Of a DNA stretch of 57,074 nt, positions 4,822 through 57,074 are shown piece by piece. Where the stretch lies: the UHGV virus genome UHGV-2195224, one strand, 5' to 3'. The notes beneath the pieces were generated by a model. The model ran no database searches, was not told the DNA's origin, and was given only the letters and a program-made list of their open reading frames with translations. The DNA is from a virus. Both the position numbers and the translations under genes were made by a program. The first letter of the stretch is position 1. Each line of letters starts with the position of its first letter.

Positions 4822-5865
4822 ATGAAAATTAACAAGATATTATCATCTGCAACACTATTGTATGGTATGTCAATGGCCATGTCGGTCGGGAGTTGTGCAA
4901 CACCTGTCCAGACTAATCTTCCTGGTTACACCCCGGGTGCAGATATCATTAGTGTTTCACCGACCAGAAACCAGGTCGATCTCATTGGTGATGTTGTTTA
5001 TTCCCAGATAAAAGGAACTCGTTCTGTCAGACAGCTTCACATGTCAGTTCTTGTCCCGCGAACAAATGATTTAAAACCAGCCATTATTTATTATCCCGGC
5101 GGCGGATTCATGTCTTCTGAACATGACAAATTTATTGAAATGAGAATGGCTCTGGCAGAAGCTGGTTTTGTTGTGGCCGCTGTAGAATACAGAACAATTC
5201 CTGATACATTTCCAGCACCAGTTGAGGATGGAAAAGCTGCAATACGTTACCTGAGAGAGCATGCCAGCAATTATGGGATTGATCCTCAAAGAATCGGAGT
5301 TCTGGGTGACTCTGCCGGTGGATGGCTTGCTCAGATGATGGGAACTACAAATGGTGACAAAACCTTTGATAAAGGTGACTTTCTTCAGCAATCCTCAGAT
5401 GTTCAGGCAGTTGCCACACTTTATGGGATTTCTGACTTGTTGAATATTGGCGAGGGGTTCCCTGAATCAGTGCAGGAGGTTCATCGCTCTCCTGCCGTAA
5501 CCGAAGCCTTAATGATCAATGGCCCTGCATTCAGAAATTTTGCGGGAGCCCCCATCACAGCGTCAAAAGAAAAAGCGCTAAACGCCAGTCCAATCGGACA
5601 TATGAAAGGAGTAAAACCCCCATTTCTTATTATGCATGGTAGCAAAGACACTCTGGTTTCACCTGAGCAAAGCGCCAAACTATTCAGGATGTTGAAGAAG
5701 AACGGCGATAACGCTGAGTACGTTCTGGTAGAAGGGGCTGAGCATGGTGATAATACATGGTATCAGCCAATTATTATAAACAGAGTTGTTGAGTGGTTTA
5801 CTAAAAACCTGGGAACCCCCATAAAAACCGCTACCCAACAACAAAAAACAAACGCTGACCTGTAA
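4822..5865 (+). CDS. alpha/beta-hydrolase esterase/lipase, probable lipoprotein (HSL/family IV-like)
   Basis: 347-aa ORF; signal peptide ending in lipobox-like VGSC; HGGG-type motif YYPGGGF; nucleophile elbow GDSAGG; C-terminal EGAEHGD; antisense cargo between ybcN and ybcK. Confidence 0.75.
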   Translation: MKINKILSSATLLYGMSMAMSVGSCATPVQTNLPGYTPGADIISVSPTRNQVDLIGDVVYSQIKGTRSVRQLHMSVLVPRTNDLKPAIIYYPGGGFMSSEHDKFIEMRMALAEAGFVVAAVEYRTIPDTFPAPVEDGKAAIRYLREHASNYGIDPQRIGVLGDSAGGWLAQMMGTTNGDKTFDKGDFLQQSSDVQAVATLYGISDLLNIGEGFPESVQEVHRSPAVTEALMINGPAFRNFAGAPITASKEKALNASPIGHMKGVKPPFLIMHGSKDTLVSPEQSAKLFRMLKKNGDNAEYVLVEGAEHGDNTWYQPIIINRVVEWFTKNLGTPIKTATQQQKTNADL

Positions 5866-16842: not shown

Positions 16843-17079
16843 ATGTCTCGACTAATCACTTTACAGGACTGGGCTAAAGAAGAATTTGGGGACTTAGCAC
16901 CAAGTGAGCGAGTTCTGAAAAAATACGCGCAAGGGAAAATGATGGCCCCACCCGCTATAAAAGTTGGTCGCTACTGGATGATTGACCGAAATTCCCGTTT
17001 TGTAGGAACGCTTGCAGAACCGCAACTCCCAATAAACGCAAACCCAAAACTCCAACGGATAATCGCTGATGGCTGCTAG
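16843..17079 (+). CDS. xis: excisionase-like protein
   Basis: 78-aa ORF with strong SD aggagg, directly upstream of and overlapping int; homologous to 55721-55966. Confidence 0.6.
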   Translation: MSRLITLQDWAKEEFGDLAPSERVLKKYAQGKMMAPPAIKVGRYWMIDRNSRFVGTLAEPQLPINANPKLQRIIADGC

Positions 17080-18211
17080 ACCCCGATCTCACAAAATCTC
17101 TATACCCAATTTATATTGCAAATTAGATAAGCGAACCGGAAAGGTATATTGGCAATACAAACATCCACTATCCGGTCGTTTTCATAGCTTAGGAACTGAT
17201 GAGAATGAAGCAAAACAAGTTGCTACTGAAGCAAATATCATTATTGCTGAACAACGTACCCGACAAATATTAAGCGTCAATGAGCGTCTGGAAAGAATGA
17301 AAGGCAGGCGCTCAGACATTACGGTGACAGAATGGCTTGATAAATATATTTCTATCCAGGAGGACAGGCTGCAACATAATGAACTAAGACCCAACTCCTA
17401 TCGGCAAAAAGGCAAACCCATTCGTCTTTTCCGTGAGCATTGTGGAATGCAACACCTCAAGGATATTACCGCACTTGATATTGCCGAAATAATTGATGCT
17501 GTAAAGGCTGAAGGTCATAACAGGATGGCGCAAGTCGTGAGAATGGTGTTAATCGACGTCTTCAAAGAAGCACAACACGCAGGACATGTTCCGCCAGGAT
17601 TTAACCCAGCGCAGGCAACAAAACAACCGCGAAATCGAGTAAACCGCCAAAGATTATCACTGCCCGAATGGCAGGCAATATTTGACAGCGTAAGCAGACG
17701 GCAGCCCTATTTAAAATGTGGGATGCTACTTGCTCTTGTCACTGGACAACGTTTAGGCGATATCTGCAATTTGAAATTCTCTGATATCTGGGACGACATG
17801 TTGCACATTACTCAGGAAAAAACCGGTTCAAAACTTGCTATTCCGCTTAACCTGAAATGCGATGCTCTGAATATTACCCTTCGTGAAGTTATATCTCAGT
17901 GCAGGGATGCTGTTGTTAGTAAATATCTGGTCCATTACCGTCACACAACCTCTCAAGCAAACAGAGGAGACCAGGTTTCTGCGAATACTCTGACAACGGC
18001 TTTTAAAAAGGCCAGGGAAAAATGTGGCATAAAATGGGAGCAAGGAACTGCGCCCACATTTCATGAGCAGCGATCTCTGTCAGAACGGTTATATCGGGAA
18101 CAGGGTCTGGATACGCAAAAGTTGTTAGGCCATAAATCCAGAAAAATGACCGACCGATACAATGATGATCGTGGTAAAGACTGGATTATCGTAGATATCA
18201 AAACAGCATAG
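17069..18211 (+). CDS. int: tyrosine integrase (lambda Int family), icd-targeting type
   Basis: 380-aa ORF; catalytic-domain motifs ...LVTGQRLGDI..., ...HEQRSL..., ...LLGHKSRKMTDRY...; adjacent to the icd-derived att core; paralogous to 55947-57074. Confidence 0.9.
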   Translation: MAARPRSHKISIPNLYCKLDKRTGKVYWQYKHPLSGRFHSLGTDENEAKQVATEANIIIAEQRTRQILSVNERLERMKGRRSDITVTEWLDKYISIQEDRLQHNELRPNSYRQKGKPIRLFREHCGMQHLKDITALDIAEIIDAVKAEGHNRMAQVVRMVLIDVFKEAQHAGHVPPGFNPAQATKQPRNRVNRQRLSLPEWQAIFDSVSRRQPYLKCGMLLALVTGQRLGDICNLKFSDIWDDMLHITQEKTGSKLAIPLNLKCDALNITLREVISQCRDAVVSKYLVHYRHTTSQANRGDQVSANTLTTAFKKAREKCGIKWEQGTAPTFHEQRSLSERLYREQGLDTQKLLGHKSRKMTDRYNDDRGKDWIIVDIKTA

Positions 18212-18324: not shown

Positions 18325-18489
18325 TTACATGTTCTTGATGATCGCGTCACCAAACTCTGAACATTTCAGCAGTTTAGCGCCTTCCATCAGACGTTCGAAG
18401 TCATAGGTTACGGTCTTCGCGTTGATTGCGCCTTCCATACCTTTAACAATCAGGTCTGCGGCTTCAGTCCAGCCCATATGGCGCAGCAG
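18325..18489 (-). pseudogene. icd: isocitrate dehydrogenase (icd) 3-prime-terminal fragment = prophage att core
   Basis: Minus-strand translation [54 protein letters not shown] then stop; an in-frame TAA sits immediately upstream so it is not fused to an icd body. Confidence 0.8.
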
Positions 18490-18933
18490 TAGTTAGATGG
18501 TTCATATACAACCGCATGATAAATAAAAATAATCCTATAATTTTATTGTAAATCAACTGGCTTTTATCTTTCCCCTAACCTATTGATTATCAATGTATGT
18601 TTTTTGGTTTTGATAACCGTTTTAGAGGGCAAAAACAAGTGCCTGTACCTATCAGCCCCTTCACGGCAAAGGGATTTTAAATCATGCGTGTTTTCACAAA
18701 CTATCAATGGCTTAACTAAATTTTTCGCCAATAACGTACGCTGTGAGTGAGAGGTGGATATGAAGTTACACACTCCCGGAAAATAAAGAATTGAGCGTTA
18801 TCTCATGCTATTAATGAAAAGTGTTTGCTTAATAGATTACATATAACTATGATTCAAGCCCAATTAAAGTCGTGTGTCTTTGGCTTAAATTGGCAAACAA
18901 ACAATCAAGTCAAGAATATAAAGGAACTATTCA

Positions 18934-19902
18934 ATGAATAAGAATTATAAAACGTTTAAACTTGAACTATGGGAGAAGTTTAAGCATCAATGTGCTTACT
19001 GTGGCACTAAACTTTATGAACCATTGATGGCGGATGTTGATCGTTTTTTCCCAAAATCAAAGTATACTGACTTCCAAGATGCTACAGACAACCTGCTCAT
19101 CGCTTGTAAGGCATGTAGCATGATTAAAAAAGATCAGTTTCCTCTCGATGAAAATGGCAAACCATTACTTCTAAATCCTTTAAATGAAAGTTTTTCAGAA
19201 CATATAAAACAAAATAAAAATGGATATTTAGAAGGTTTAACTGAGCGAGGACATGCGACTATAGATATATTACAGTTGAATAGACCTTCATTAATTGAAC
19301 AGCGCATTCTAGATGTTATTGATATGCAGTACTCTGATGATCGAACGCTATCTGAACGAGATGTCTATATGACATTCCAAAATAGTATGCAGAACGCCAT
19401 AAAACTAAATGATGCTCAGTTAAAAATTGATAGCACTTTACAAATACAAATGTCGTATATGCTATATGCCAATACAATAACTTCCTTGGAAACATATTTA
19501 TGTGACAGATTTATTTCCCTAATTCATGGTAGCCAAACTAATTTGAGAAATTTTGTTGAAACCTTCAAAGATTACAATACAGAAAAATTCTTACTTTCTG
19601 AATTATTTATAAGGCATGAACAAATAGAGTCTCAAGCGATAGAGTCTATGAAGAGTGTTCTTTATCATAATCTGCCAAAAGTAAGTGGCATGTATCGAGA
19701 TACCTTTGGTATTAAATTCCCTGTTTTCACAGAAGTTTATAAAAGCGTGTTAATTAGGCATGACTTAGTTCATCGAGCAGGTAAAACAAAAAATGGTAAT
19801 TTTCATAAGTTAGATTCAGAGTCAGTTAAAGATGTTATCAAAAAATGCTGTGACTTGGTTGAACAACTAGAAAAAGAGCTTAAAGATTGTGCATCATTCT
19901 AG
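18934..19902 (+). CDS. uncharacterized protein: N-terminal HNH-like Cys4 zinc-finger domain plus C-terminal helical domain with R-x4-H (HEPN-like) motif
   Basis: 322-aa AT-rich ORF; CAYCG...DVDRFFPKSKY...DNLLIACKACSMIKKD (Arg where the catalytic His is expected); C-terminal ...SVLIRHDLVHRAGK...; SD aagga. Confidence 0.55.
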   Translation: MNKNYKTFKLELWEKFKHQCAYCGTKLYEPLMADVDRFFPKSKYTDFQDATDNLLIACKACSMIKKDQFPLDENGKPLLLNPLNESFSEHIKQNKNGYLEGLTERGHATIDILQLNRPSLIEQRILDVIDMQYSDDRTLSERDVYMTFQNSMQNAIKLNDAQLKIDSTLQIQMSYMLYANTITSLETYLCDRFISLIHGSQTNLRNFVETFKDYNTEKFLLSELFIRHEQIESQAIESMKSVLYHNLPKVSGMYRDTFGIKFPVFTEVYKSVLIRHDLVHRAGKTKNGNFHKLDSESVKDVIKKCCDLVEQLEKELKDCASF

Positions 19903-20095
19903 GTAATTGCCACCAAATCGAAGGTGATCGCGCTTGCGGTCACCAAAAGTAATAAACTATTCATTCCCATTCGATCATCTGAACCAACACAATTTTATTT
20001 AATAAAGTTGACCTACTTCATTATTTGATACCCATCCAATGTGCGCAAGGGCTGCTTCTGGCACATGGTTACCCTTGATGAGAAGGTAGATCACC

Positions 20096-20219
20096 GCTAT
20101 GGGGTGTCGGGGGCGGAGGTTCAAATCCTCTCGTGCTGACCAAAAATCCTCGAAGAACCAGCCTGTTACGGCTGGTTTTTTTTGCCTGTTTTCTGAACGG
20201 GGAAGCAATGGGGAAATTA
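20096..20219 (+). repeat. direct repeat copy 1: 3-prime 45 nt of a tRNA-Pro gene (to ACCA at about 20142) plus its terminator and flank
   Basis: ctatggggtgtcgggggcggaGGTTCAAATCCtctcgtgctgACCA then aaccagcctgttacggctggttttttt; no 5-prime tRNA half upstream. Confidence 0.7.
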
Positions 20220-20405
20220 GCTTACGATTGACCCCACTGCGAAAAGCGCAGATTTTTATCAATGGACGTACATAGGGTAGATAAGGCACAATACTGCTTC
20301 AATGTCGTCTGATGGTATTGTAATACTAATTACATCAGATGATTTAACTAGATTAGTTCTTTATAGAAATCATTCTTGAATATTAATTGGCTGACTGAGG
20401 TTTTT

Positions 20406-21191
20406 ATGGATGAAAAATACAGAAGATTTGTTGATGAGGTTGACTTTTCAAGACAATTATTAGGCATAGGGCTCACTTCCCTAAGGAAAGCAAATTTTGC
20501 AAGTAGAGGATTGTATTTTCAAGCATTATCCGGCATCAGTTTAGGATTAGAAAGGCTTATGAAACTTTGCCTTATGCTTGATGATTATAATAAAAATGGA
20601 AAATATACATCACGCAAAAAATTAAGAGATTACGGTCATAACTTAAGCAAGTTATTCAACCTAGTCATTGAGAGAGTTGATTCTCCCTCTGGCTTAAATG
20701 AAATTCACTACAGAGTGATGGAGTTGTTAACTAATTTTGCAAATTCATCAAGATATAGTAATATTGATTTCATTACTAATGACAACGACAATGATCCCAT
20801 GAAGCAATGGTATAATGAAATCGATAAGAGCATTTACGATAAAATATTAACAAAAAGACAAAAAAATATAATTGATAAAAAATGCGAGCAATACCGAAGC
20901 TATGGTGAAACACTGCCATGCTATGTGCTTGGATATTATGATGAAGACAGAAACCATATAAACTCTGCAGGGGATTTAAATTATTTACTTAAAAGAAGTG
21001 AAATGCTTGCTGGTTATCGCACTTTATTAGTTATTCATATCATAGAATGCATCTATAACATATTAGACTCAATGACAGTTCAAGCAAAAGATAATCACTT
21101 CCACCATCTTGAATTAGGTCGTTTTTTTGCAACCATCATTTATGGCTCTGATAGAGACAAAATCAATAGAAAAAATTTTATCCGTATGTGA
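20406..21191 (+). CDS. uncharacterized AT-rich protein (about 261 aa from ATG at 20406) bracketed by tRNA-Pro-fragment repeats
   Basis: SD gagg 6 nt upstream; MDEKYRRFVDEVDFSRQLLGIGLTSLRKANFASRGLYFQALSGISLGLERLMKL...; no recognised catalytic motif. Confidence 0.55.
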   Translation: MDEKYRRFVDEVDFSRQLLGIGLTSLRKANFASRGLYFQALSGISLGLERLMKLCLMLDDYNKNGKYTSRKKLRDYGHNLSKLFNLVIERVDSPSGLNEIHYRVMELLTNFANSSRYSNIDFITNDNDNDPMKQWYNEIDKSIYDKILTKRQKNIIDKKCEQYRSYGETLPCYVLGYYDEDRNHINSAGDLNYLLKRSEMLAGYRTLLVIHIIECIYNILDSMTVQAKDNHFHHLELGRFFATIIYGSDRDKINRKNFIRM

Positions 21192-21267
21192 GACTACGAA
21201 GCGACCGACGAATGATGCTATCAACTTACTGTAGACGCATATAGGCCATCAGAATATTAGCACGACA

Positions 21268-21389
21268 CTATGGGGTGTCGGGGGGCGGAGGTTCAAATCC
21301 TCTCGTGCCGACCAAAAATCCTCGAAGAACCAGCCTGTTACGGCTGGTTTTTTTGCCTGTTTTCTGAACGGGGAAGCAATGGGGAATTA
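21268..21389 (+). repeat. direct repeat copy 2: tRNA-Pro 3-prime fragment (to ACCA at about 21314) plus terminator and flank
   Basis: Near-identical to 20096-20219 with a few substitutions/indels (e.g. ctgacca vs ccgacca). Confidence 0.7.
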
Positions 21390-21588
21390 CAGGGGAAAAA
21401 CCCCGTCAAATGTTGCCCCCGTATCGCTAGCACACAATGATTAAGTATCTTTTTCACTTTCGGAATTCATCAATTCACAAAACCATCATTCCGATTTACC
21501 TTACATGCTCCTTTTAAATCTTTAACGGTGTGCACCACTTTTTCTAACTGCCCTATACTTTCAGTCTGACATACGGCTGGAGGTTTCT

Positions 21589-22257
21589 ATGTGTGGACGC
21601 TTTTCACAGTCAATGACCCGTGAAGATTATCTTGCCCTTCTCGCTGATGAATCAGAACGCGATATTCCATACGATCCAGAACCCATCGGAAGATTCAACG
21701 TAGCGCCAGGAACAAAAGTTCTGCTTCTGAGCGAACGTGATGAGCAGTTGCATCTTGATCCAGTTATCTGGGGATACGCCCCCGGTTGGTGGGATAAACC
21801 GCCGCTCATTAATGCACGGTCTGAAACTGCTGCCACCAGCAGAATGTTTAAACCACTCTGGCAGCATGGCCGCGCAATTTGCTTTGCTGATGGATGGTAT
21901 GAGTGGAAAAAGGAAGGCGACCAAAAACAACCCTACTTTATTCACCGGGCAGACGGTCAGCCGATTTTTATGGCGGCGATCGGCAGCACACCATTCGAAC
22001 GTGGAGATGAAGCAGAAGGTTTCCTGATAGTTACAGCTGCAGCTGACAAAGGACTGGTTGATATTCACGACAGACGACCACTGGTACTGCTACCGGAAGC
22101 CGCGCGTGAATGGATGAGGCAGGATGTTGGAGGGAAAGAAGCAGCGGAAATTGCAGCCGACGGTGTTGTACCGGCTGATAAATTTATATGGCACGCCGTA
22201 ACGCGTGCCGTCGGGAATGTGAAAAATCAGGGCGCCGAACTAATAACGCCAATATGA
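21589..22257 (+). CDS. SOS-response-associated peptidase (SRAP / YedK-like abasic-site processing protein)
   Basis: 222-aa ORF starting MCGRFSQS (catalytic Cys2) with SD ggagg; occupies the slot where a Pin/Gin invertase gene would be expected. Confidence 0.7.
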   Translation: MCGRFSQSMTREDYLALLADESERDIPYDPEPIGRFNVAPGTKVLLLSERDEQLHLDPVIWGYAPGWWDKPPLINARSETAATSRMFKPLWQHGRAICFADGWYEWKKEGDQKQPYFIHRADGQPIFMAAIGSTPFERGDEAEGFLIVTAAADKGLVDIHDRRPLVLLPEAAREWMRQDVGGKEAAEIAADGVVPADKFIWHAVTRAVGNVKNQGAELITPI

Positions 22258-22451
22258 TTACATCACCGGACAATCATCAAACTCCGCGTTCCTCGCATCA
22301 TTAATGATGTAAGTAATCACCCCGAATATCGCGGGAGCAGAACCGTAACCGTCATCATCTACTGGTAGCATCTCCCTTCTCCCGCTCTCCAAATTAATCA
22401 GGTGGTGTTGAGGATGAGTCCGATATCGCTTGATCCTGAACTCCCCGTCGA

Positions 22452-22934
22452 TTGCACATATCAGCAGTGAGCCATCGCAGTTTGGGAGAAGGTGCTCCAG
22501 CTATTGGCGTTCCGTTCTTCTGGGCGTCCGCTGCAATGCCAAATACTGTAATCGACAGCTGGTCCAGTATGGTGTTTTTGAAGTTCAACGGGGCGAAATT
22601 TTCTGCCACTGATTACCCTGTGCTGGCGAAAGTGTTTCCGGCGTTGGCATTACCTGACGCACGCGGTGATTTCATTCGTGTCTGGGATGACGGGCGAGGT
22701 GCAGATGGTGGTCGCGAATTATTAAGCTGGCAGGCAGCTACAAACTTTTCTCAGTTTGCCGGGAATATAGGCGAAGGTGCGGGACACGCAATTAACTTTC
22801 ATGATGGCATCGCCGGAAATCAGCCAGGATTTTCACGATTTAATTTCACCAGTAACTCTGTGGGTGATGGTGTGAATTTTGTTGCTGTCAGACCGCGAAA
22901 TATTGCATTTAACTTTCTGGTGAGGGCTAAATAA
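22452..22934 (+). CDS. tail-fibre alternative C-terminal segment (silent inverted cassette)
   Basis: ...GEGAPAIGVPFFWASAAMPNTVIDSWSSMVFLKFNGAKFSATDYPVLAKVFPALALPDARGDFIRVWDDGRG...; begins at the inverted-repeat crossover half-site, no constant N-terminal part. Confidence 0.7.
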   Translation: MHISAVSHRSLGEGAPAIGVPFFWASAAMPNTVIDSWSSMVFLKFNGAKFSATDYPVLAKVFPALALPDARGDFIRVWDDGRGADGGRELLSWQAATNFSQFAGNIGEGAGHAINFHDGIAGNQPGFSRFNFTSNSVGDGVNFVAVRPRNIAFNFLVRAK

Positions 22935-23527
22935 TGAAACCTGTTTTTGATGAAAATGGGCTGGCTACAGTGCCGGGCGATATGCGTTGTTTTTATTATG
23001 ATGCTGAAACATCTGAGTATACGGGCTGGTCTGATGAATATATTAATACTGGCGTAAGTATGCCCGCCTGTTCAACTGGTATTGACCCGGGCGAAAACAT
23101 TCTGGGAAGAGTGACGGTATTTACAGGTAAGGGATGGAGCCATGAGGAAGACCATCGCAATGAGACTGTTTACTCAATCGAAAATGGTGCAGCTGTTACA
23201 GTGGATTATATCGGTGCCATCAAAGACGGTTATGTCACGCTTTCACCGTTAACGCCATACGATAAATGGGATGGTGAGAAATGGGTGACAGACACTGAGG
23301 CACAACACAGTGCCGCAGTAGACGCGGCAGAAGCACAGCGCCAGTCACTGATTGATGCAGCAATGGCTTCCATTAGTCTGATTCAGCTGAAATTACAGGC
23401 CGGACGGAAACTGACTCAGGCAGAAACAACCCGACTTAACGCCGTGCTGGATTACATTGACGCGGTGACGGCAACAGATACCAGCACCGCGCCGGATGTC
23501 ATCTGGCCTGAACTGCCGGAGGCGTAG
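22934..23527 (+). CDS. tail fibre assembly protein (Tfa; partner of the silent fibre cassette)
   Basis: 197-aa ORF MKPVFDENGLATVPGDMRCFYYDAETSEYTGWSDEYINTG... Confidence 0.8.
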   Translation: MKPVFDENGLATVPGDMRCFYYDAETSEYTGWSDEYINTGVSMPACSTGIDPGENILGRVTVFTGKGWSHEEDHRNETVYSIENGAAVTVDYIGAIKDGYVTLSPLTPYDKWDGEKWVTDTEAQHSAAVDAAEAQRQSLIDAAMASISLIQLKLQAGRKLTQAETTRLNAVLDYIDAVTATDTSTAPDVIWPELPEA

Positions 23528-44038: not shown

Positions 44039-45067
44039 ATGGCTACACTGGACGCATTCAGTAGAGTAATAACTCATCATACTATTACGATCGATACACA
44101 ATACCGTACACAGAAAATTGATGATAGCATCAGATCGAACTGTGTTTGCCCAGTACCAACAATGCGTGAACTTGCTTCTAAAATAGTACATTGTAAAGCA
44201 ATGATGCACAGTTATGAAAAAGGAGACTTAGTTTTAACTTTACAAGATGTAATATTCTTATCAAACAGAGCCGATAAAAAACCCAGCCATCTTGGTCTTT
44301 TAATTAATGCTGTAGATAAAAATGGAAGCACTACTGTATTAAAAAACATTAATACAGATGTTCGCACCGAAATATCACCAAAACATGAGGAAGGTGAAGG
44401 TTACGAAGTTTCTTCTCATATGATTATTTCTCTAGACGGAAATATGCGAACGTATGACATGAGTTTTATGCCAATACCAGGAGTTTCCACAGCAAAAATA
44501 AATGGTTTCCTGAATAAAGTTCTCTTTAACGTAGCCAAAGATAATGAAGATATCTTTTCATGTAACACTTTAACAAATGAAGTATCAAGTTTAACAAAGA
44601 AAAAAATAAAAGTATTATACAAGCCAGTCTTTGATATATCTGGAAAGTTAGATGAAGATTTGTTCAATAAAATAAATAAAGAAGGACTTTCTGATGTCGT
44701 TTTGGTAAAGAATGAATACAGAACTATTAATGCGCCAGATGTTAACGCGGCTATTATTCCTAAAGAAAGTACTTTACGCTTAGTACCAAACCATGGCCCC
44801 AACAATGTCCTTGGATGGATAAAATCTGTCTCAAACTTCTTTAAAGAAGATAAAAATGGAGGTTATGACTTAATAAAAATAAAATTCAAAGAGCCAGAGA
44901 CAGGATTCACAAGACAAGTTGACCTTCAAACTTCAAATGTAAGGCTGGATGGGCTGGAAAAAACATTTATCAAAAAGAGTGTAATAAATGGTTTTTCTTC
45001 GCGCTTAAAGGATTCTTATGATAGTATTAACATGGAGTTTGTGAATAAGATTATCGAGGTCATGTGA
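44039..45067 (+). CDS. uncharacterized soluble protein (342 aa), first gene of an AT-rich antisense cargo operon between Q and the holin
   Basis: ORF MATLDAFSRVITHHTITIDTQYRTQKIDDSIRSN...; no recognised motif; weak SD. Confidence 0.55.
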   Translation: MATLDAFSRVITHHTITIDTQYRTQKIDDSIRSNCVCPVPTMRELASKIVHCKAMMHSYEKGDLVLTLQDVIFLSNRADKKPSHLGLLINAVDKNGSTTVLKNINTDVRTEISPKHEEGEGYEVSSHMIISLDGNMRTYDMSFMPIPGVSTAKINGFLNKVLFNVAKDNEDIFSCNTLTNEVSSLTKKKIKVLYKPVFDISGKLDEDLFNKINKEGLSDVVLVKNEYRTINAPDVNAAIIPKESTLRLVPNHGPNNVLGWIKSVSNFFKEDKNGGYDLIKIKFKEPETGFTRQVDLQTSNVRLDGLEKTFIKKSVINGFSSRLKDSYDSINMEFVNKIIEVM

Positions 45068-45074
45068 GGCTAAT

Positions 45075-45650
45075 ATGATTAGTATATTTTCACATTTATT
45101 TAGACCGTTTGGTTACCTTTTCATTAAGGGAATTAGTGGTAAGTGCGCATACGATTTTTATGCACCTGCCGGGCTTGCTGTGATTTCTTTTTTTTACTTT
45201 TATTTATTTAAAATACCTACATCAGACCTACTAAAAGATGGCGGCTTTATTAAGTCTATATCTGGATTTGTATCAAATCTGCCAGGTTTTTATATAGCAG
45301 CTCTTGCAGCAATAGCCACTTTCAACAGAGAACAAATTGACTACCCTCTGATAGGAACTAATGGCACTCCTTTTATTAAAATTACACGAACAAAAGAAAA
45401 TGGTAGAATTGTTGACACTCAAGAGAAACTTACCAGAAGATTATTTCTGTGCATGTTATTTTCATTTTTAACTGCCCTCAGCATATGCATAGTGATTTTC
45501 AACGCTTTTATCACACCACTAATAAACATACTGAATAATGATATAGCAAACTGGTGCTATATCATTATCTTTTTATTCCTTACATGGCAAATGCTTGTTT
45601 CAACATTTTTTGGACTATACTATCTTGGTGATAGGATTCACATTAATTAA
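45075..45650 (+). CDS. uncharacterized integral membrane protein (191 aa, about four TM helices), second gene of the cargo operon
   Basis: Starts 8 nt after the upstream stop with SD gagg; hydrophobic runs AGLAVISFFYFYLF, LPGFYIAALAAIATF, LFLCMLFSFLTALSICIVIFNAFI, WCYIIIFLFLTWQMLVSTFFGLYYL. Confidence 0.6.
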   Translation: MISIFSHLFRPFGYLFIKGISGKCAYDFYAPAGLAVISFFYFYLFKIPTSDLLKDGGFIKSISGFVSNLPGFYIAALAAIATFNREQIDYPLIGTNGTPFIKITRTKENGRIVDTQEKLTRRLFLCMLFSFLTALSICIVIFNAFITPLINILNNDIANWCYIIIFLFLTWQMLVSTFFGLYYLGDRIHIN

Positions 45651-55129: not shown

Positions 55130-55666
55130 ATGTCATTTATTAAAACTTTTTCCGGGAAGCATTTTTATTATGACAAGATAAATAAAGACGACATCGATAT
55201 TAACGATATCGCGGTTTCCCTTTCAAATATCTGTCGCTTTGCCGGTCATCTTTCGCACTTCTACAGCGTCGCCCAACATGCGGTGCTTTGCAGCCAGCTG
55301 GTACCGCAGGAATTTGCTTTTGAAGCGTTAATGCATGATGCAACAGAAGCGTATTGCCAGGACATCCCCGCACCACTGAAACGCCTTCTTCCTGACTATA
55401 AACGGATGGAAGAAAAAATAGACACCATAATCCGTGAGAAATACGGGTTACCCCCGGTTATGAGCACGCCTGTGAAATATGCCGATCTCATCATGCTGGC
55501 AACCGAACGCCGCGATCTCGGGCTTGATGATGGCTCTTTCTGGCCTGTACTGGAAGGTATCCCGGCAACAGAGATGTTCAACGTGATTCCACTGGCACCG
55601 GGCCATGCCTACGGGATGTTTATGGAACGTTTTAAAGAGCTGCATAAGATGCATAAGCAATCCTAA
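55130..55666 (+). CDS. HD-domain phosphohydrolase (CPS-53 YfdR-like 5-prime-deoxynucleotidase family), 178 aa
   Basis: internal ATG MSFIKTF...; ...HLSHFYSVAQHAVLCSQL...ALMHDATEAY... HD motif. Confidence 0.55.
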   Translation: MSFIKTFSGKHFYYDKINKDDIDINDIAVSLSNICRFAGHLSHFYSVAQHAVLCSQLVPQEFAFEALMHDATEAYCQDIPAPLKRLLPDYKRMEEKIDTIIREKYGLPPVMSTPVKYADLIMLATERRDLGLDDGSFWPVLEGIPATEMFNVIPLAPGHAYGMFMERFKELHKMHKQS

Positions 55667-55720: not shown

Positions 55721-55966
55721 ATGCTTCAAATGCTGACACTTGAGGAATGGGCTGCGGAAAAATTTAGGAGTAACCCTCCAAGTGTGTCCACATTGCGTCG
55801 TTATGCTAAGCAGAATTTATTTTGTCCACCGGCAATGAAACAAGGTCGACTATGGCGAGTACGTGAGGACGCAGAGTTAGTTGGAGAATTAGTTACTCCT
55901 GTCATTAAGAAAAGTGATTCTATTATTCTACAAAGGATTTTAAGTAATGGCAGCCAGACCACGTAA
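55721..55966 (+). CDS. xis: excisionase-like protein (paralog of 16843-17079)
   Basis: 81-aa ORF MLQMLTLEEWAAEKFRSNPPSVSTLRRYAKQNLFCPPAMKQGRLW...; overlaps int start. Confidence 0.55.
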   Translation: MLQMLTLEEWAAEKFRSNPPSVSTLRRYAKQNLFCPPAMKQGRLWRVREDAELVGELVTPVIKKSDSIILQRILSNGSQTT

Positions 55967-57074
55967 GAATAATGTTTCAGTCCCGAACTTGTATCCGCTC
56001 TATAGCAGAAAAGTAAATAAAGTTTATTGGCGATATAAGCATCCAGTGACCGGGAAGTTTCATTCTTTGGGCACAAACGAAGCTGAAGCCATTGCTATTG
56101 CCACTGAGGCCAATACACGCCTAGCTGAGCAAAGAACCCGGCAGATTCTAGCTATCAGTGACAGGATCGCAACCAGCAAAGGAAAAGCAATCACAACGTC
56201 AACCTGGTTAGATCGCTATCAAGCAATCCAGGAAGACAGACTGAAAAGTGGCGATATAAAGCTCAACACCTATAAACAGAAAGCCAAACCAGTATCCTTG
56301 CTCAGGGAACGAGCAGGACTGAAGTTGATATCAGCCGTTGATGTCAGAGATATAGCACAATTACTTGATGAGTATATCTCTGCTGGACAGCCTAGAATGG
56401 CCCAGGTCGTAAGGTCTGTATTGATCGATGTGTTTAAGGAAGCACAGCATTACGGCGAAGTTCCACCAGGGTATAACCCTGCTCTTGCAACGAAGCAACC
56501 CAGAAGGAAAATTAGCCGTCAACGCCTCAGCCTAGAAGAATGGAAAAAAATATTCGATATCGCAGACGCCGCTCATCGTTATATGGGAAATGCCATGCTC
56601 CTAGCTTTGGTCACAGGGCAGCGTTTAGGAGATATATCCAAAATGAAATTTAGTGATATTTGGGAGGATCATCTTCACGTCATTCAGGAAAAGACCGGGA
56701 GCAAAATCGCTATCCCTCTTTCTTTACGTTTGAATGCTATCAACTGGTGTTTACGTGATGTAGTAGCTCGCTGCCGTGACTACGCAGTCAGCCCATACTT
56801 AGTGCATTTTTTCCGTACTACATCACAGGCTGAACGTGGCGCACAGGTAAAAGCTAATACACTAACGATGAACTTTAGCAAGGCACGTGATCTGGCAGAA
56901 ATTGATTGGGGTACTGGAACTCCAGCAACTTTTCATGAACAAAGATCTTTATCTGAGCGTCTTTACAAGGAACAAGGGATTGATACCAGAAAGTTACTGG
57001 GCCATAAAACCCAGCAGCAAACCGATCGTTACCATGATGACCGAGGGAAAGGTTGGAGCAAAGTAGCATTGTAA
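55947..57074 (+). CDS. int: tyrosine integrase (paralog of 17069-18211)
   Basis: 375-aa ORF ending at the last base of the window; ...LVTGQRLGDI..., ...HEQRSL..., ...LLGHKTQQQTDRY... Confidence 0.9.
   Translation: MAARPRKNNVSVPNLYPLYSRKVNKVYWRYKHPVTGKFHSLGTNEAEAIAIATEANTRLAEQRTRQILAISDRIATSKGKAITTSTWLDRYQAIQEDRLKSGDIKLNTYKQKAKPVSLLRERAGLKLISAVDVRDIAQLLDEYISAGQPRMAQVVRSVLIDVFKEAQHYGEVPPGYNPALATKQPRRKISRQRLSLEEWKKIFDIADAAHRYMGNAMLLALVTGQRLGDISKMKFSDIWEDHLHVIQEKTGSKIAIPLSLRLNAINWCLRDVVARCRDYAVSPYLVHFFRTTSQAERGAQVKANTLTMNFSKARDLAEIDWGTGTPATFHEQRSLSERLYKEQGIDTRKLLGHKTQQQTDRYHDDRGKGWSKVAL

Follow-up and report, generated by a model that had tools for sequence, protein, structure and literature searches.

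The 57,074-nucleotide sequence of the UHGV virus genome UHGV-2195224, which is referred to here in its entirety as the window, contains two complete-looking prophages in tandem at icd, the isocitrate dehydrogenase gene, and the second of them carries two direct repeats of about 123 bp that enclose a single accessory gene. The first prophage (positions 1 to ~18.3 kb) is DLP12-like and lambdoid and ends in its own integrase; the second (~18.5-57.1 kb) is an e14-like myovirus prophage, which other strains have alone. From its left end, the e14-like prophage contains a fragment of icd (icd'), an HNH nuclease gene, the first repeat (R1), the accessory gene (called here the cargo gene), the second repeat (R2) and a gene encoding an SOS-response-associated peptidase (SRAP), followed by the tail, head, lysis and replication genes and the second integrase. 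In Escherichia coli strain C1 the same block adjoins ycgX/ymgL, which is the e14 site at icd. The repeats are thus inside an e14-like prophage that is integrated at icd, in tandem with a lambdoid prophage in the window. We conclude, with a probability of about 0.7, that R1 and R2 are a duplicated, vestigial phage attachment site (attP) of the type used at the tRNA gene proL, that they bracket one imported accessory gene, and that the arrangement is static and not an active cassette. The coordinates are collected in Table 1.

Table 1. Features of the window that bear on the two repeats, in order of position.
Feature	Position	Strand	Composition or basis
Integrase of the upstream lambdoid (DLP12-like) prophage	17069-18211	+	380-amino-acid open reading frame; its counterpart is a site-specific integrase beside icd in FEX669
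icd' fragment (duplicated 3' end of the isocitrate dehydrogenase gene); junction of the tandem prophages and left end of the e14-like one	18325-18492	-	
HNH nuclease gene (322 amino acids)	18934-19902	+	PADLOC, PHROG, sequence reading
Old left (P-arm side) flank of the relic attachment site, common to single-copy relatives	20039-20098	+	Alignments
R1, relic proL-type attP, copy 1	20097-20219	+	tRNA-Pro(GGG) positions 32-76 (20099-20142, one G missing), 9-nt spacer, hairpin 20152-20181 with T8, ~35 bp of P' arm; direct reading, repeat finder, alignment, folding
Segment between R1 and the cargo unit (~110 bp)	20220-20332	+	Matches only in doublet genomes and contigs
Imported cargo unit	20333-21240	+	~73 bp upstream, coding sequence 20406-21191, ~45 bp downstream
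Segment (~27 bp) abutting the left edge of R2	21241-21267	+	No homology to the left flank of R1 or to the flank of any relative
R2, relic proL-type attP, copy 2	21268-21389	+	tRNA-Pro positions 32-76 (21270-21314), hairpin 21324-21353 with T7, then P' arm; direct reading, repeat finder, alignment, folding
Remainder of the ancestral P' arm with the leader (21390-21588), followed by the SRAP gene (21589-22257)	21390-22257	+	
Second integrase, encoded by the repeat-bearing e14-like prophage	55947-57074	+	Arm-DNA-bind_1 and Phage_integrase

An initial annotation of this DNA had described near-identical direct repeats, and they were confirmed by direct reading, by a repeat finder and by BLAST (97.5% identity over 120 bp); the identity begins with CT at 20097 and 21268, and not at 20096 as was first given for R1. 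The repeat finder reported two families, 20109-20182/21281-21354 (74 nt, 99%) and 20177-20215/21348-21386 (39 nt, 100%), which are separated only by a one-base difference in a T-run, have a spacing of 1171-1172 bp and together span ~20109-20215 and 21281-21386. A single substitution distinguishes the copies (GTGCTGACCA in R1 and GTGCCGACCA in R2), along with two to three indels of one base, in a G-run, a T-run and an A-run. Each repeat is composed of the 3' 44-45 nt of the proL tRNA-Pro(GGG), a strong terminator hairpin and about 35 bp of additional sequence. The tRNA-like part, from the anticodon loop to CCA, agrees with K-12 proL at 43 of 46 positions in R1 and 44 of 46 in R2, which bears out the earlier assignment to the 3' end of a tRNA-Pro gene, and a 25-nt pattern taken from the T-arm and acceptor occurs exactly twice in the window and in none of 100 shuffles. 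For both copies, folding gave the same 12-bp hairpin (-17.5 kcal/mol, z-scores of -4.3 to -4.6), with U7-8 after it. ARAGORN called no tRNA gene or pseudo-tRNA anywhere in the 57-kb window, and a search of positions 19800-21700 against Rfam found nothing at E<=1.

The sequences that follow the tRNA part are not those of the chromosomal gene. After ACCAAAAATCC the native K-12 proL continues with CAAGAAAAAACCAACCC..., whereas both R1 and R2 continue with TCGAAGAACCAGCC..., and native proL is terminated by another hairpin, although one of similar design. The R-type sequence is found behind an intact tRNA-Pro gene, and continues to SRAP, in strains that have a prophage at proL. In one of these lysogens, 100181, the far end of the prophage (attR) consists of the same tRNA fragment, beginning at TCATGGGG, followed by the native terminator; therefore, the identity between attL and attR is only about 55 bp long, and the remaining ~68 bp of each repeat (the surrogate terminator plus ~35 bp) belong to the P' arm. 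A capsid-encoding satellite that targets proL in UTAK-5 has an unrelated P' arm, and so the 68 bp are specific to the SRAP phage lineage. The sequence from R2 through SRAP is 93-94% identical to the tRNA-Pro-to-SRAP junction of the proL lysogens, and R1 has the first ~68 bp in common with it. Because the flank departs from native proL and matches the phage side (the P' arm) of attL in proL lysogens, the repeats are of the attP type and are carried in phage DNA. The hairpin had been taken for the terminator of the tRNA-Pro gene itself, which these comparisons contradict; the accompanying view that the repeats descend from the attachment site of a tyrosine integrase agrees with the presence of a 3' tRNA fragment joined to a P' arm as in the proL lysogens.

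The location also differs from what had been supposed. The repeats were described as scars at a tRNA gene, but the window has no tRNA gene and the locus is in an icd prophage between ycgX/ymgL and icd, about 1 Mb (K-12 coordinates) from proL, which is between yejM and yejO. Of the features that a chromosomal scar should have, only the match to the tRNA 3' end is present, and both the intact tRNA gene at the other end and the native flank are missing. As an attP of the proL-integrating SRAP phages, the repeats have the core and the P' arm and lack a cognate integrase beside the site. The adjoining genes are instead the HNH and cargo genes, and for this reason we call the attP a relic. R1 and R2 are attP-type relics of a proL-integrating phage lineage.

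The two copies have kept different sides of the ancestral site. R1 has the older left flank: positions 20039-20215 of the window, which include the repeat, align to the icd-type phage contig L011 with 85% identity over 179 bp, and the TTCTGGCACAT...GTAGC...CCATC flank is also present at the relic in strain UTI89. R2 has the old right flank and runs unbroken into the conserved region upstream of SRAP, and its left flank is unrelated. The two repeats are each other's closest relatives; both have CGAAG where single-copy relatives have CTAAG or TTAAG, and both have lost an 'AT' after the T-run. The left edge of R2 is in the anticodon loop, where the attL/attR identity begins in 100181, and homology to the proL phage, to the phage contig L013 and to Salmonella Gifsy-2 also breaks at the anticodon-loop position. 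The spacer between R1 and R2 is 1048 bp, and it includes a small terminator-like hairpin at 20237-20251. When the edges of the spacer (~110 bp and ~27 bp) were used in distant BLAST searches of 5426 complete E. coli genomes, only the eight genomes with the complete doublet were found, and exact-pattern scans of the JGI metagenomes and IMG/VR returned only the same arrangement. One stretch, 'CGAATGAT', is common to the R2 flank and to the P arm of 100181; it was dismissed as a chance match, as it is the diverged downstream part of the cargo unit.

The repeats had also been said to lack any 5' half of the tRNA. This is correct to the extent that there is no tRNA gene and no functional half, but 14 bases upstream of R1 (20085-20098), which are absent from R2, resemble a tRNA, matching tRNA positions 18-31 in register at 11-12 of 14 positions (a binomial p of ~4e-5 by our estimate). 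A gapped test for a decayed 5' half gave p ~0.01 for the UTI89 relic and a non-significant p of 0.15-0.39 for R1, and in alignment to tRNA-Pro positions 1-31 the 45 nt upstream of the UTI89 relic outperform 99% of shuffles. Together, the 14-mer that matches in register and the comparison with UTI89 are suggestive of a decayed tRNA 5' half upstream of R1.

Of the 5426 complete E. coli genomes, eight have the full doublet, and none of the others has the HNH gene, R1 or the cargo gene. The phage-type flank occurs in 253 genomes but in only 265 places, and so second copies are essentially limited to the doublet genomes. About 30 further assemblies or contigs have the identical architecture, with or without the lambdoid neighbor, and the differences between R1 and R2 are fixed in them. 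A derivative without the cargo gene was found neither in the 5426 complete genomes nor in the ~30 assemblies. The cargo had been proposed to be a live, excisable cassette; instead, it is never absent beside the HNH gene (eight of eight complete genomes and ~30 assemblies), and an invariant locus is the outcome that the initial annotation itself had named as telling against its proposal, at least in this lineage. Cargo-less loci were briefly suspected from a difference in index blocks (670 for the HNH gene and 109 for the cargo gene), but the difference is explained by two cargo alleles that are one residue apart. 'Unfilled' single-copy states are found only in related phages with other neighboring genes (L011 and L013). 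The doublet arose once and is now stable.

Comparison with related phages places the relic at a sharp boundary. The window phage and the proL prophage of 100181 are collinear and 89-98% identical over 27.8 of 38.6 kb (~72% of the backbone); the homology begins exactly at 21270, which is the anticodon-loop position of R2, and ends at 55639, just upstream of the integrase, so that only the integrase, attachment and accessory segment differs between the two phages. Single copies of the relic are present in the icd-type phage contigs L011 and L013, in the ssrA-integrated prophage of UTI89 and in Gifsy-2, which is not known to integrate at proL. A diverged flank variant like that of UTI89 occurs in ~170 other genomes, mostly of the extraintestinal pathogenic E. 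coli type; its context was examined in UTI89 alone. To the left of the relic, every one of these phages has a different set of genes: the HNH and cargo genes in the window, three genes in L011, one of which has an RNRVVH motif, and a gene for a 223-amino-acid membrane/coiled-coil protein in L013. On its right-hand side the relic is followed by SRAP in the window, L011, L013, Gifsy-2 and the proL lysogens, with UmuC next in L011, L013 and the proL lysogens, while UTI89 has a DinI-like pseudogene and a pin remnant instead of SRAP. The window sequence 21390-22257 is 91-94% identical to the tRNA-Pro-to-SRAP junction in the proL lysogens, L011 and L013, and the SRAP gene (Pfam SRAP, 6.8e-51) is the first gene of the conserved phage backbone. 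The proL-type attP therefore persists as a relic at the boundary between a variable accessory-gene slot and a conserved SRAP module.

Some details of the single-copy relatives can be added. In UTI89 (L045, NC_007946.1 ~4915-5090) the relic is between three end genes, one of them GIY-YIG, and a DinI/DUF262/pin/tail-fiber block. The Gifsy-2 copy (L010, NC_010393.1 ~1505-1840) has a tRNA-Pro fragment with an internal deletion, a terminator and a flank that leads to an unannotated SRAP-like open reading frame, and it adjoins the sseI effector region. UTAK-5 (L004, L044) has a tandem array at proL that consists of the tRNA-Pro gene, the satellite, a short middle attachment site and the SRAP phage; the satellite encodes its own integrase, a primase, a prohead protease/major capsid fusion and a small terminase, and its tRNA homology is much shorter than that of the SRAP phage. 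Across R1, R2, L011, L013, UTI89 and Gifsy-2, the tRNA part of the relic agrees with the host gene at 42-45 of 46 positions, while the identity of the adjacent flank falls to ~75%. Between R2 and UTI89, for example, the tRNA part has ~1 mismatch in 46 positions, whereas the flank is ~75% identical. At variable-loop position 47, a G or a gap replaces T in R1, R2, UTI89 and Gifsy-2 but not in L011 and L013.

The cargo gene was first read as encoding 271 amino acids from a TTG at 20376. The product is in fact 261 amino acids long, from an ATG at 20406; all of the homologues start with MDEKY, and the annotation pipeline PGAP chose the same start. The further claim that the repeats bracket a horizontally acquired gene is supported by its low guanine-plus-cytosine (GC) content, 36% for the cargo unit versus 50-58% for the phage structural genes, and by the finding of the same unit in unrelated contexts: a segment equivalent to ~20333-21240, with 76-80% DNA identity and the same end points, is present in five of them. 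Homologues occupy accessory-type positions: in a P2-like prophage the gene separates the tail genes S and V, in a P4-like element it is on the far side of the primase gene, in a CP4-57-like island it adjoins an AAA_15/21 ATPase gene, and in Xenorhabdus it is beside hicAB and phage head genes. In addition, a Logan contig (L021, SRR22936687, 59-2700) has the order SRAP, a gene for a 263-amino-acid protein and a cargo homologue (81% amino acid identity), with no attachment-site relic. There are no repeats around the homologues in Klebsiella and Xenorhabdus, which indicates that the repeats are not a property of the cargo gene. Other genes occupy the slot in L011, L013, 100181 and UTI89, where the cargo gene is absent; the gene for a 256-amino-acid protein beside attR in the proL phage was considered as a homologue and is not homologous.

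The cargo family is small, with only 26 clusters among 5.8 billion proteins, from E. coli, Pectobacterium, Klebsiella, Xenorhabdus, Proteus, Aeromonas, Pantoea and Gallibacterium; the only relative found in species-representative genomes is one distant Gallibacterium locus. The cargo protein had no significant match in Pfam, PADLOC, PHROGs or NCBIfam, none of the PADLOC 2023 defense models matched it at E<=1, and no mention of WP_032162445 was found in the literature. Its AlphaFold model is confident and all-alpha, with a pLDDT (predicted local distance difference test) score of 88, and in structural comparison it is closest to HEPN domain proteins, HepN toxins, Csm6 and AbiV. Against the Pfam HEPN model the cargo protein scored 12.5 bits (the cut-off is 22), and six of 15 family members had weak matches, the best with an E value of 1.6e-5. 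Invariant residues in the family are E49-R50, K53, G77-H78 and R116-Y-S-N. The canonical Rx4-6H motif is not present in the family alignment; a basic residue precedes H78 at position -4 (R/K-x3-H), and no H follows R116-Y-S-N. The predicted fold of the cargo protein is HEPN-like, and the fold together with the context suggests that the gene is probably of the phage-exclusion or abortive-infection type.

The HNH gene that precedes R1 is always together with the cargo gene in E. coli, and its position is the one that McrA has in e14. The N-terminal half of the protein matches PtuB in PADLOC (1e-23), that is, the PtuB-type HNH models of Septu and retron systems; the protein also matches HNH families in PHROG, and its C-terminal half matches phrog_29321. 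A reading of the C-terminal domain revealed an RHDLVH motif, which resembles the HEPN Rx4H motif. About 73 bp upstream of the cargo gene are conserved across contexts, and the gene has the R1 terminator upstream and the R2 terminator downstream. Judged from their sequences, R1 and R2 today most plausibly act only as intrinsic terminators, in which case the HNH and cargo genes would each be a separate transcription unit that is insulated from SRAP.

As for the other ends of the prophages, the annotation of strain C1 lists the icd' fragment as a pseudogene for a partial isocitrate dehydrogenase, and the fragment matches the phage-borne icd segments of phage 21, lambda-like phages, L011 and L013; in L013 the open reading frame ends in the Icd C-terminus. 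In identical loci the lambdoid integrase has the Pfam domains Arm-DNA-bind_1 and Phage_integrase. From its position in the prophage we infer that the integrase of the e14-like prophage is of the icd type, and it is only 26% identical to the integrase of the proL relative. Neither of the two resident integrases is of the cognate type.

How did two relics come to enclose the cargo gene? In the SRAP/umuDC myovirus prophage family the proL-type attP rebuilds the tRNA gene on integration with its 3' tRNA part (anticodon loop to CCA), and it also brings a substitute terminator of phage origin and the first part of the P' arm. The window prophage has the same backbone with another integration module, which comprises an unrelated integrase and icd', and the proL attP is left in it as a relic. 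In one ancestor, ~1.05 kb with the HEPN-fold gene became bracketed by two relic copies. From the structure of the junctions, recombination within the attachment site is the most likely source of the doublet, and it could have taken any of three routes: integrase-mediated accretion, in which a phage integrates beside a decayed remnant flanked by attachment sites and then excises from the outer sites; insertion of a small circle that carries an attachment site; or homologous recombination between attachment-site copies. We favor accretion or circle insertion because the left edge of R2 is the anticodon-loop position at which the attL/attR identity begins and at which the homology to relatives breaks. 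A random break is unlikely to fall at that position, and the older flank of R1 extends the tRNA-like sequence further to the left; both observations count against an origin in which no integrase took part, by illegitimate or template-switch insertion that duplicated 123 bp or by unequal crossing-over of related phages. We regard such an origin as unlikely, but a plain duplication is still a serious rival, since near-identity over 123 bp with common derived characters is what a simple duplication would produce, mosaic joints are widespread in these phages and the cargo unit moves among unrelated contexts without flanking repeats, so that an attachment site is not needed. Several other observations weigh against the proposed duplication of a relic attP. 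No precursor, such as a cargo remnant flanked by attachment sites at proL or the spacer edges elsewhere, was found in the complete E. coli genomes, IMG/VR or the JGI metagenomes. Accretion requires a donor whose P' arm matches the 68 bp, including the two derived characters, and thus a close sibling; a plain duplication fits this equally well. A simple scan upstream of the cargo gene found no sigma-70-like promoter. Finally, pure neutral decay does not predict that the tRNA part would outlast the flank in lineages that are not at proL, and this conservation would be compatible with some remaining function or with frequent gene flow from phages of the proL type.

If such a function exists, the relics might be kept as secondary attB sites for satellites and phages that target proL, or as an alternative attP, and the duplication might have been selected. 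The better conservation of the tRNA part in icd-, ssrA- and proL-type lineages and the stacking of satellites and phages at proL-type sites would agree with this. However, no element is inserted at the relic in any locus that was read, R2 is without the 5' half of the anticodon stem and the Gifsy-2 copy is internally deleted, and recent, repeated module swaps from proL-type ancestors would explain the conservation as well; we consider a retained function highly improbable. The explanation offered in the initial annotation, that the repeats are chromosomal attL/attR scars of one or two small elements at a tRNA-Pro gene and that the cargo is still excisable, is correct in that the repeats are direct, derived from attachment sites and placed around a foreign, low-GC gene. 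Several elements do target proL, sometimes in tandem, and recombination between 123-bp direct repeats is mechanistically possible on general grounds. As noted above, however, the locus is in an icd prophage in a window that has neither a tRNA gene nor a cognate integrase, the flank is P' arm and not chromosome, the cargo gene is never absent beside the HNH gene, and the fixed differences between R1 and R2 show no homogenization. This explanation is largely refuted as to location and flank, and as a whole it is very unlikely. Much the same must be said of a live, integron-like cassette in which relic proL-type sites would serve as docking points where integrases of co-resident proL phages or satellites insert and excise small circles, here of one repeat plus a HEPN-fold anti-phage gene not described before; there is little chance that this is so, but if true, it would give phages a site-specific route to swap defense genes.

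The duplicated relic attP can be compared with several known arrangements. Williams is said to have defined, in 2002, an anticodon-loop sublocation class among the tRNA-gene attachment sites of tyrosine-integrase phages and islands. The relative in 100181 is like this class in that the 3' tRNA part of attP restores the gene and the displaced fragment marks the other end; the site in the window differs, as it is away from the tRNA gene, is not used by the resident integrases and is present twice. In 2004 Pavlovic and coworkers reportedly treated tandem accretion, and with it cis-mobilizable elements (CIMEs), in elements of the ICESt1 type. Like the window, a CIME (reviewed in PMC5704250) has a short segment without an integrase between two direct attachment sites, which in the window are those of a related autonomous element. 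However, CIMEs belong to integrative and conjugative elements at a chromosomal site and their mobilization has been shown experimentally, whereas the pair in the window is inside a phage genome from which the cognate integrase is absent, and neither excision nor a presence/absence polymorphism was seen for R1/R2. Both e14 and phage 21 integrate into icd. They resemble the window prophage in entering the gene at its 3' end and supplying icd' as a substitute, in a nuclease gene (McrA in e14 and HNH in the window) and in pin/tail-fiber genes at the same prophage end; the K-12 e14 is a defective remnant, while the window phage appears complete and has the backbone of a proL-integrating phage. The concept of the moron describes an accessory gene in a prophage, and the patchy presence, variable slot and atypical composition of the cargo gene agree with it. 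Morons and defense hotspots are also like the window in having a low-GC gene in a variable slot near the prophage end that is bounded by terminators, but in the window the flanking terminators are duplicated attachment-site relics. The hotspots of P2 and P4 are gpA-gpQ and psu-int (Rousset et al. 2022, PMC9122126), and the slots of the cargo homologues (between S and V in P2 and beyond the P4-like primase) are not those two. The cargo protein is similar to the HEPN superfamily (Anantharaman et al. 2013, PMC3710099) in its predicted all-alpha fold and structural matches, and it differs in having no Rx4-6H motif and a Pfam score under the threshold.

A few observations concern other parts of the prophage. 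Positions 44039-45650 contain a second low-GC (33-37%) insert, of two genes, with the lysis genes on one side and the Q antiterminator on the other. The insert matches the PADLOC candidate system PDC-M53A/B (2e-31 and 1.7e-54), and in the proL-integrated relative this slot is occupied by TIR-domain and caspase-family genes (L015 20326-21703). In another genome (L037, CP164611.1 ~4343403-4351371) a P4-type integrase gene and DUF554/ornithine decarboxylase genes precede HNH-R1-cargo-R2-SRAP in place of icd'/ycgX, and the homology to the window begins at 18479; either a rearrangement or another exchange of the integration module may account for this. In two doublet genomes, C1 (L001 21690-23707) and Ecol_545 (L041), SRAP is split by IS421 (IS4 family), and an IS200/IS605 transposase gene was noted next to the icd' fragment. 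The segment from SRAP to the tail fibers also varies among the doublet strains (window 22258-23527 versus L001 23708-25940). In C1 this stretch contains an S24 peptidase pseudogene, DinI and pinE, while the window continues nearly straight to the tail-collar and tail-fiber assembly genes, which suggests a pin-associated deletion or inversion.

In conclusion, phage mosaicism is seen clearly at this locus, but the case is an ordinary one. The attachment site of a phage has outlived its own integrase: in phages that now integrate at icd, ssrA or elsewhere it still marks a sharp edge between modules, and a variable slot for accessory genes is directly beside the relic attP. The duplicated relic is the likely footprint of accretion mediated by attachment sites, which may be one way in which phages gain accessory genes. 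Annotators should be aware that a tRNA fragment followed by a terminator in a prophage is no evidence for local integration. The cargo family, with its rare HEPN-fold genes in the accessory slots of phages, satellites and islands, is a modest lead in the search for anti-phage functions.

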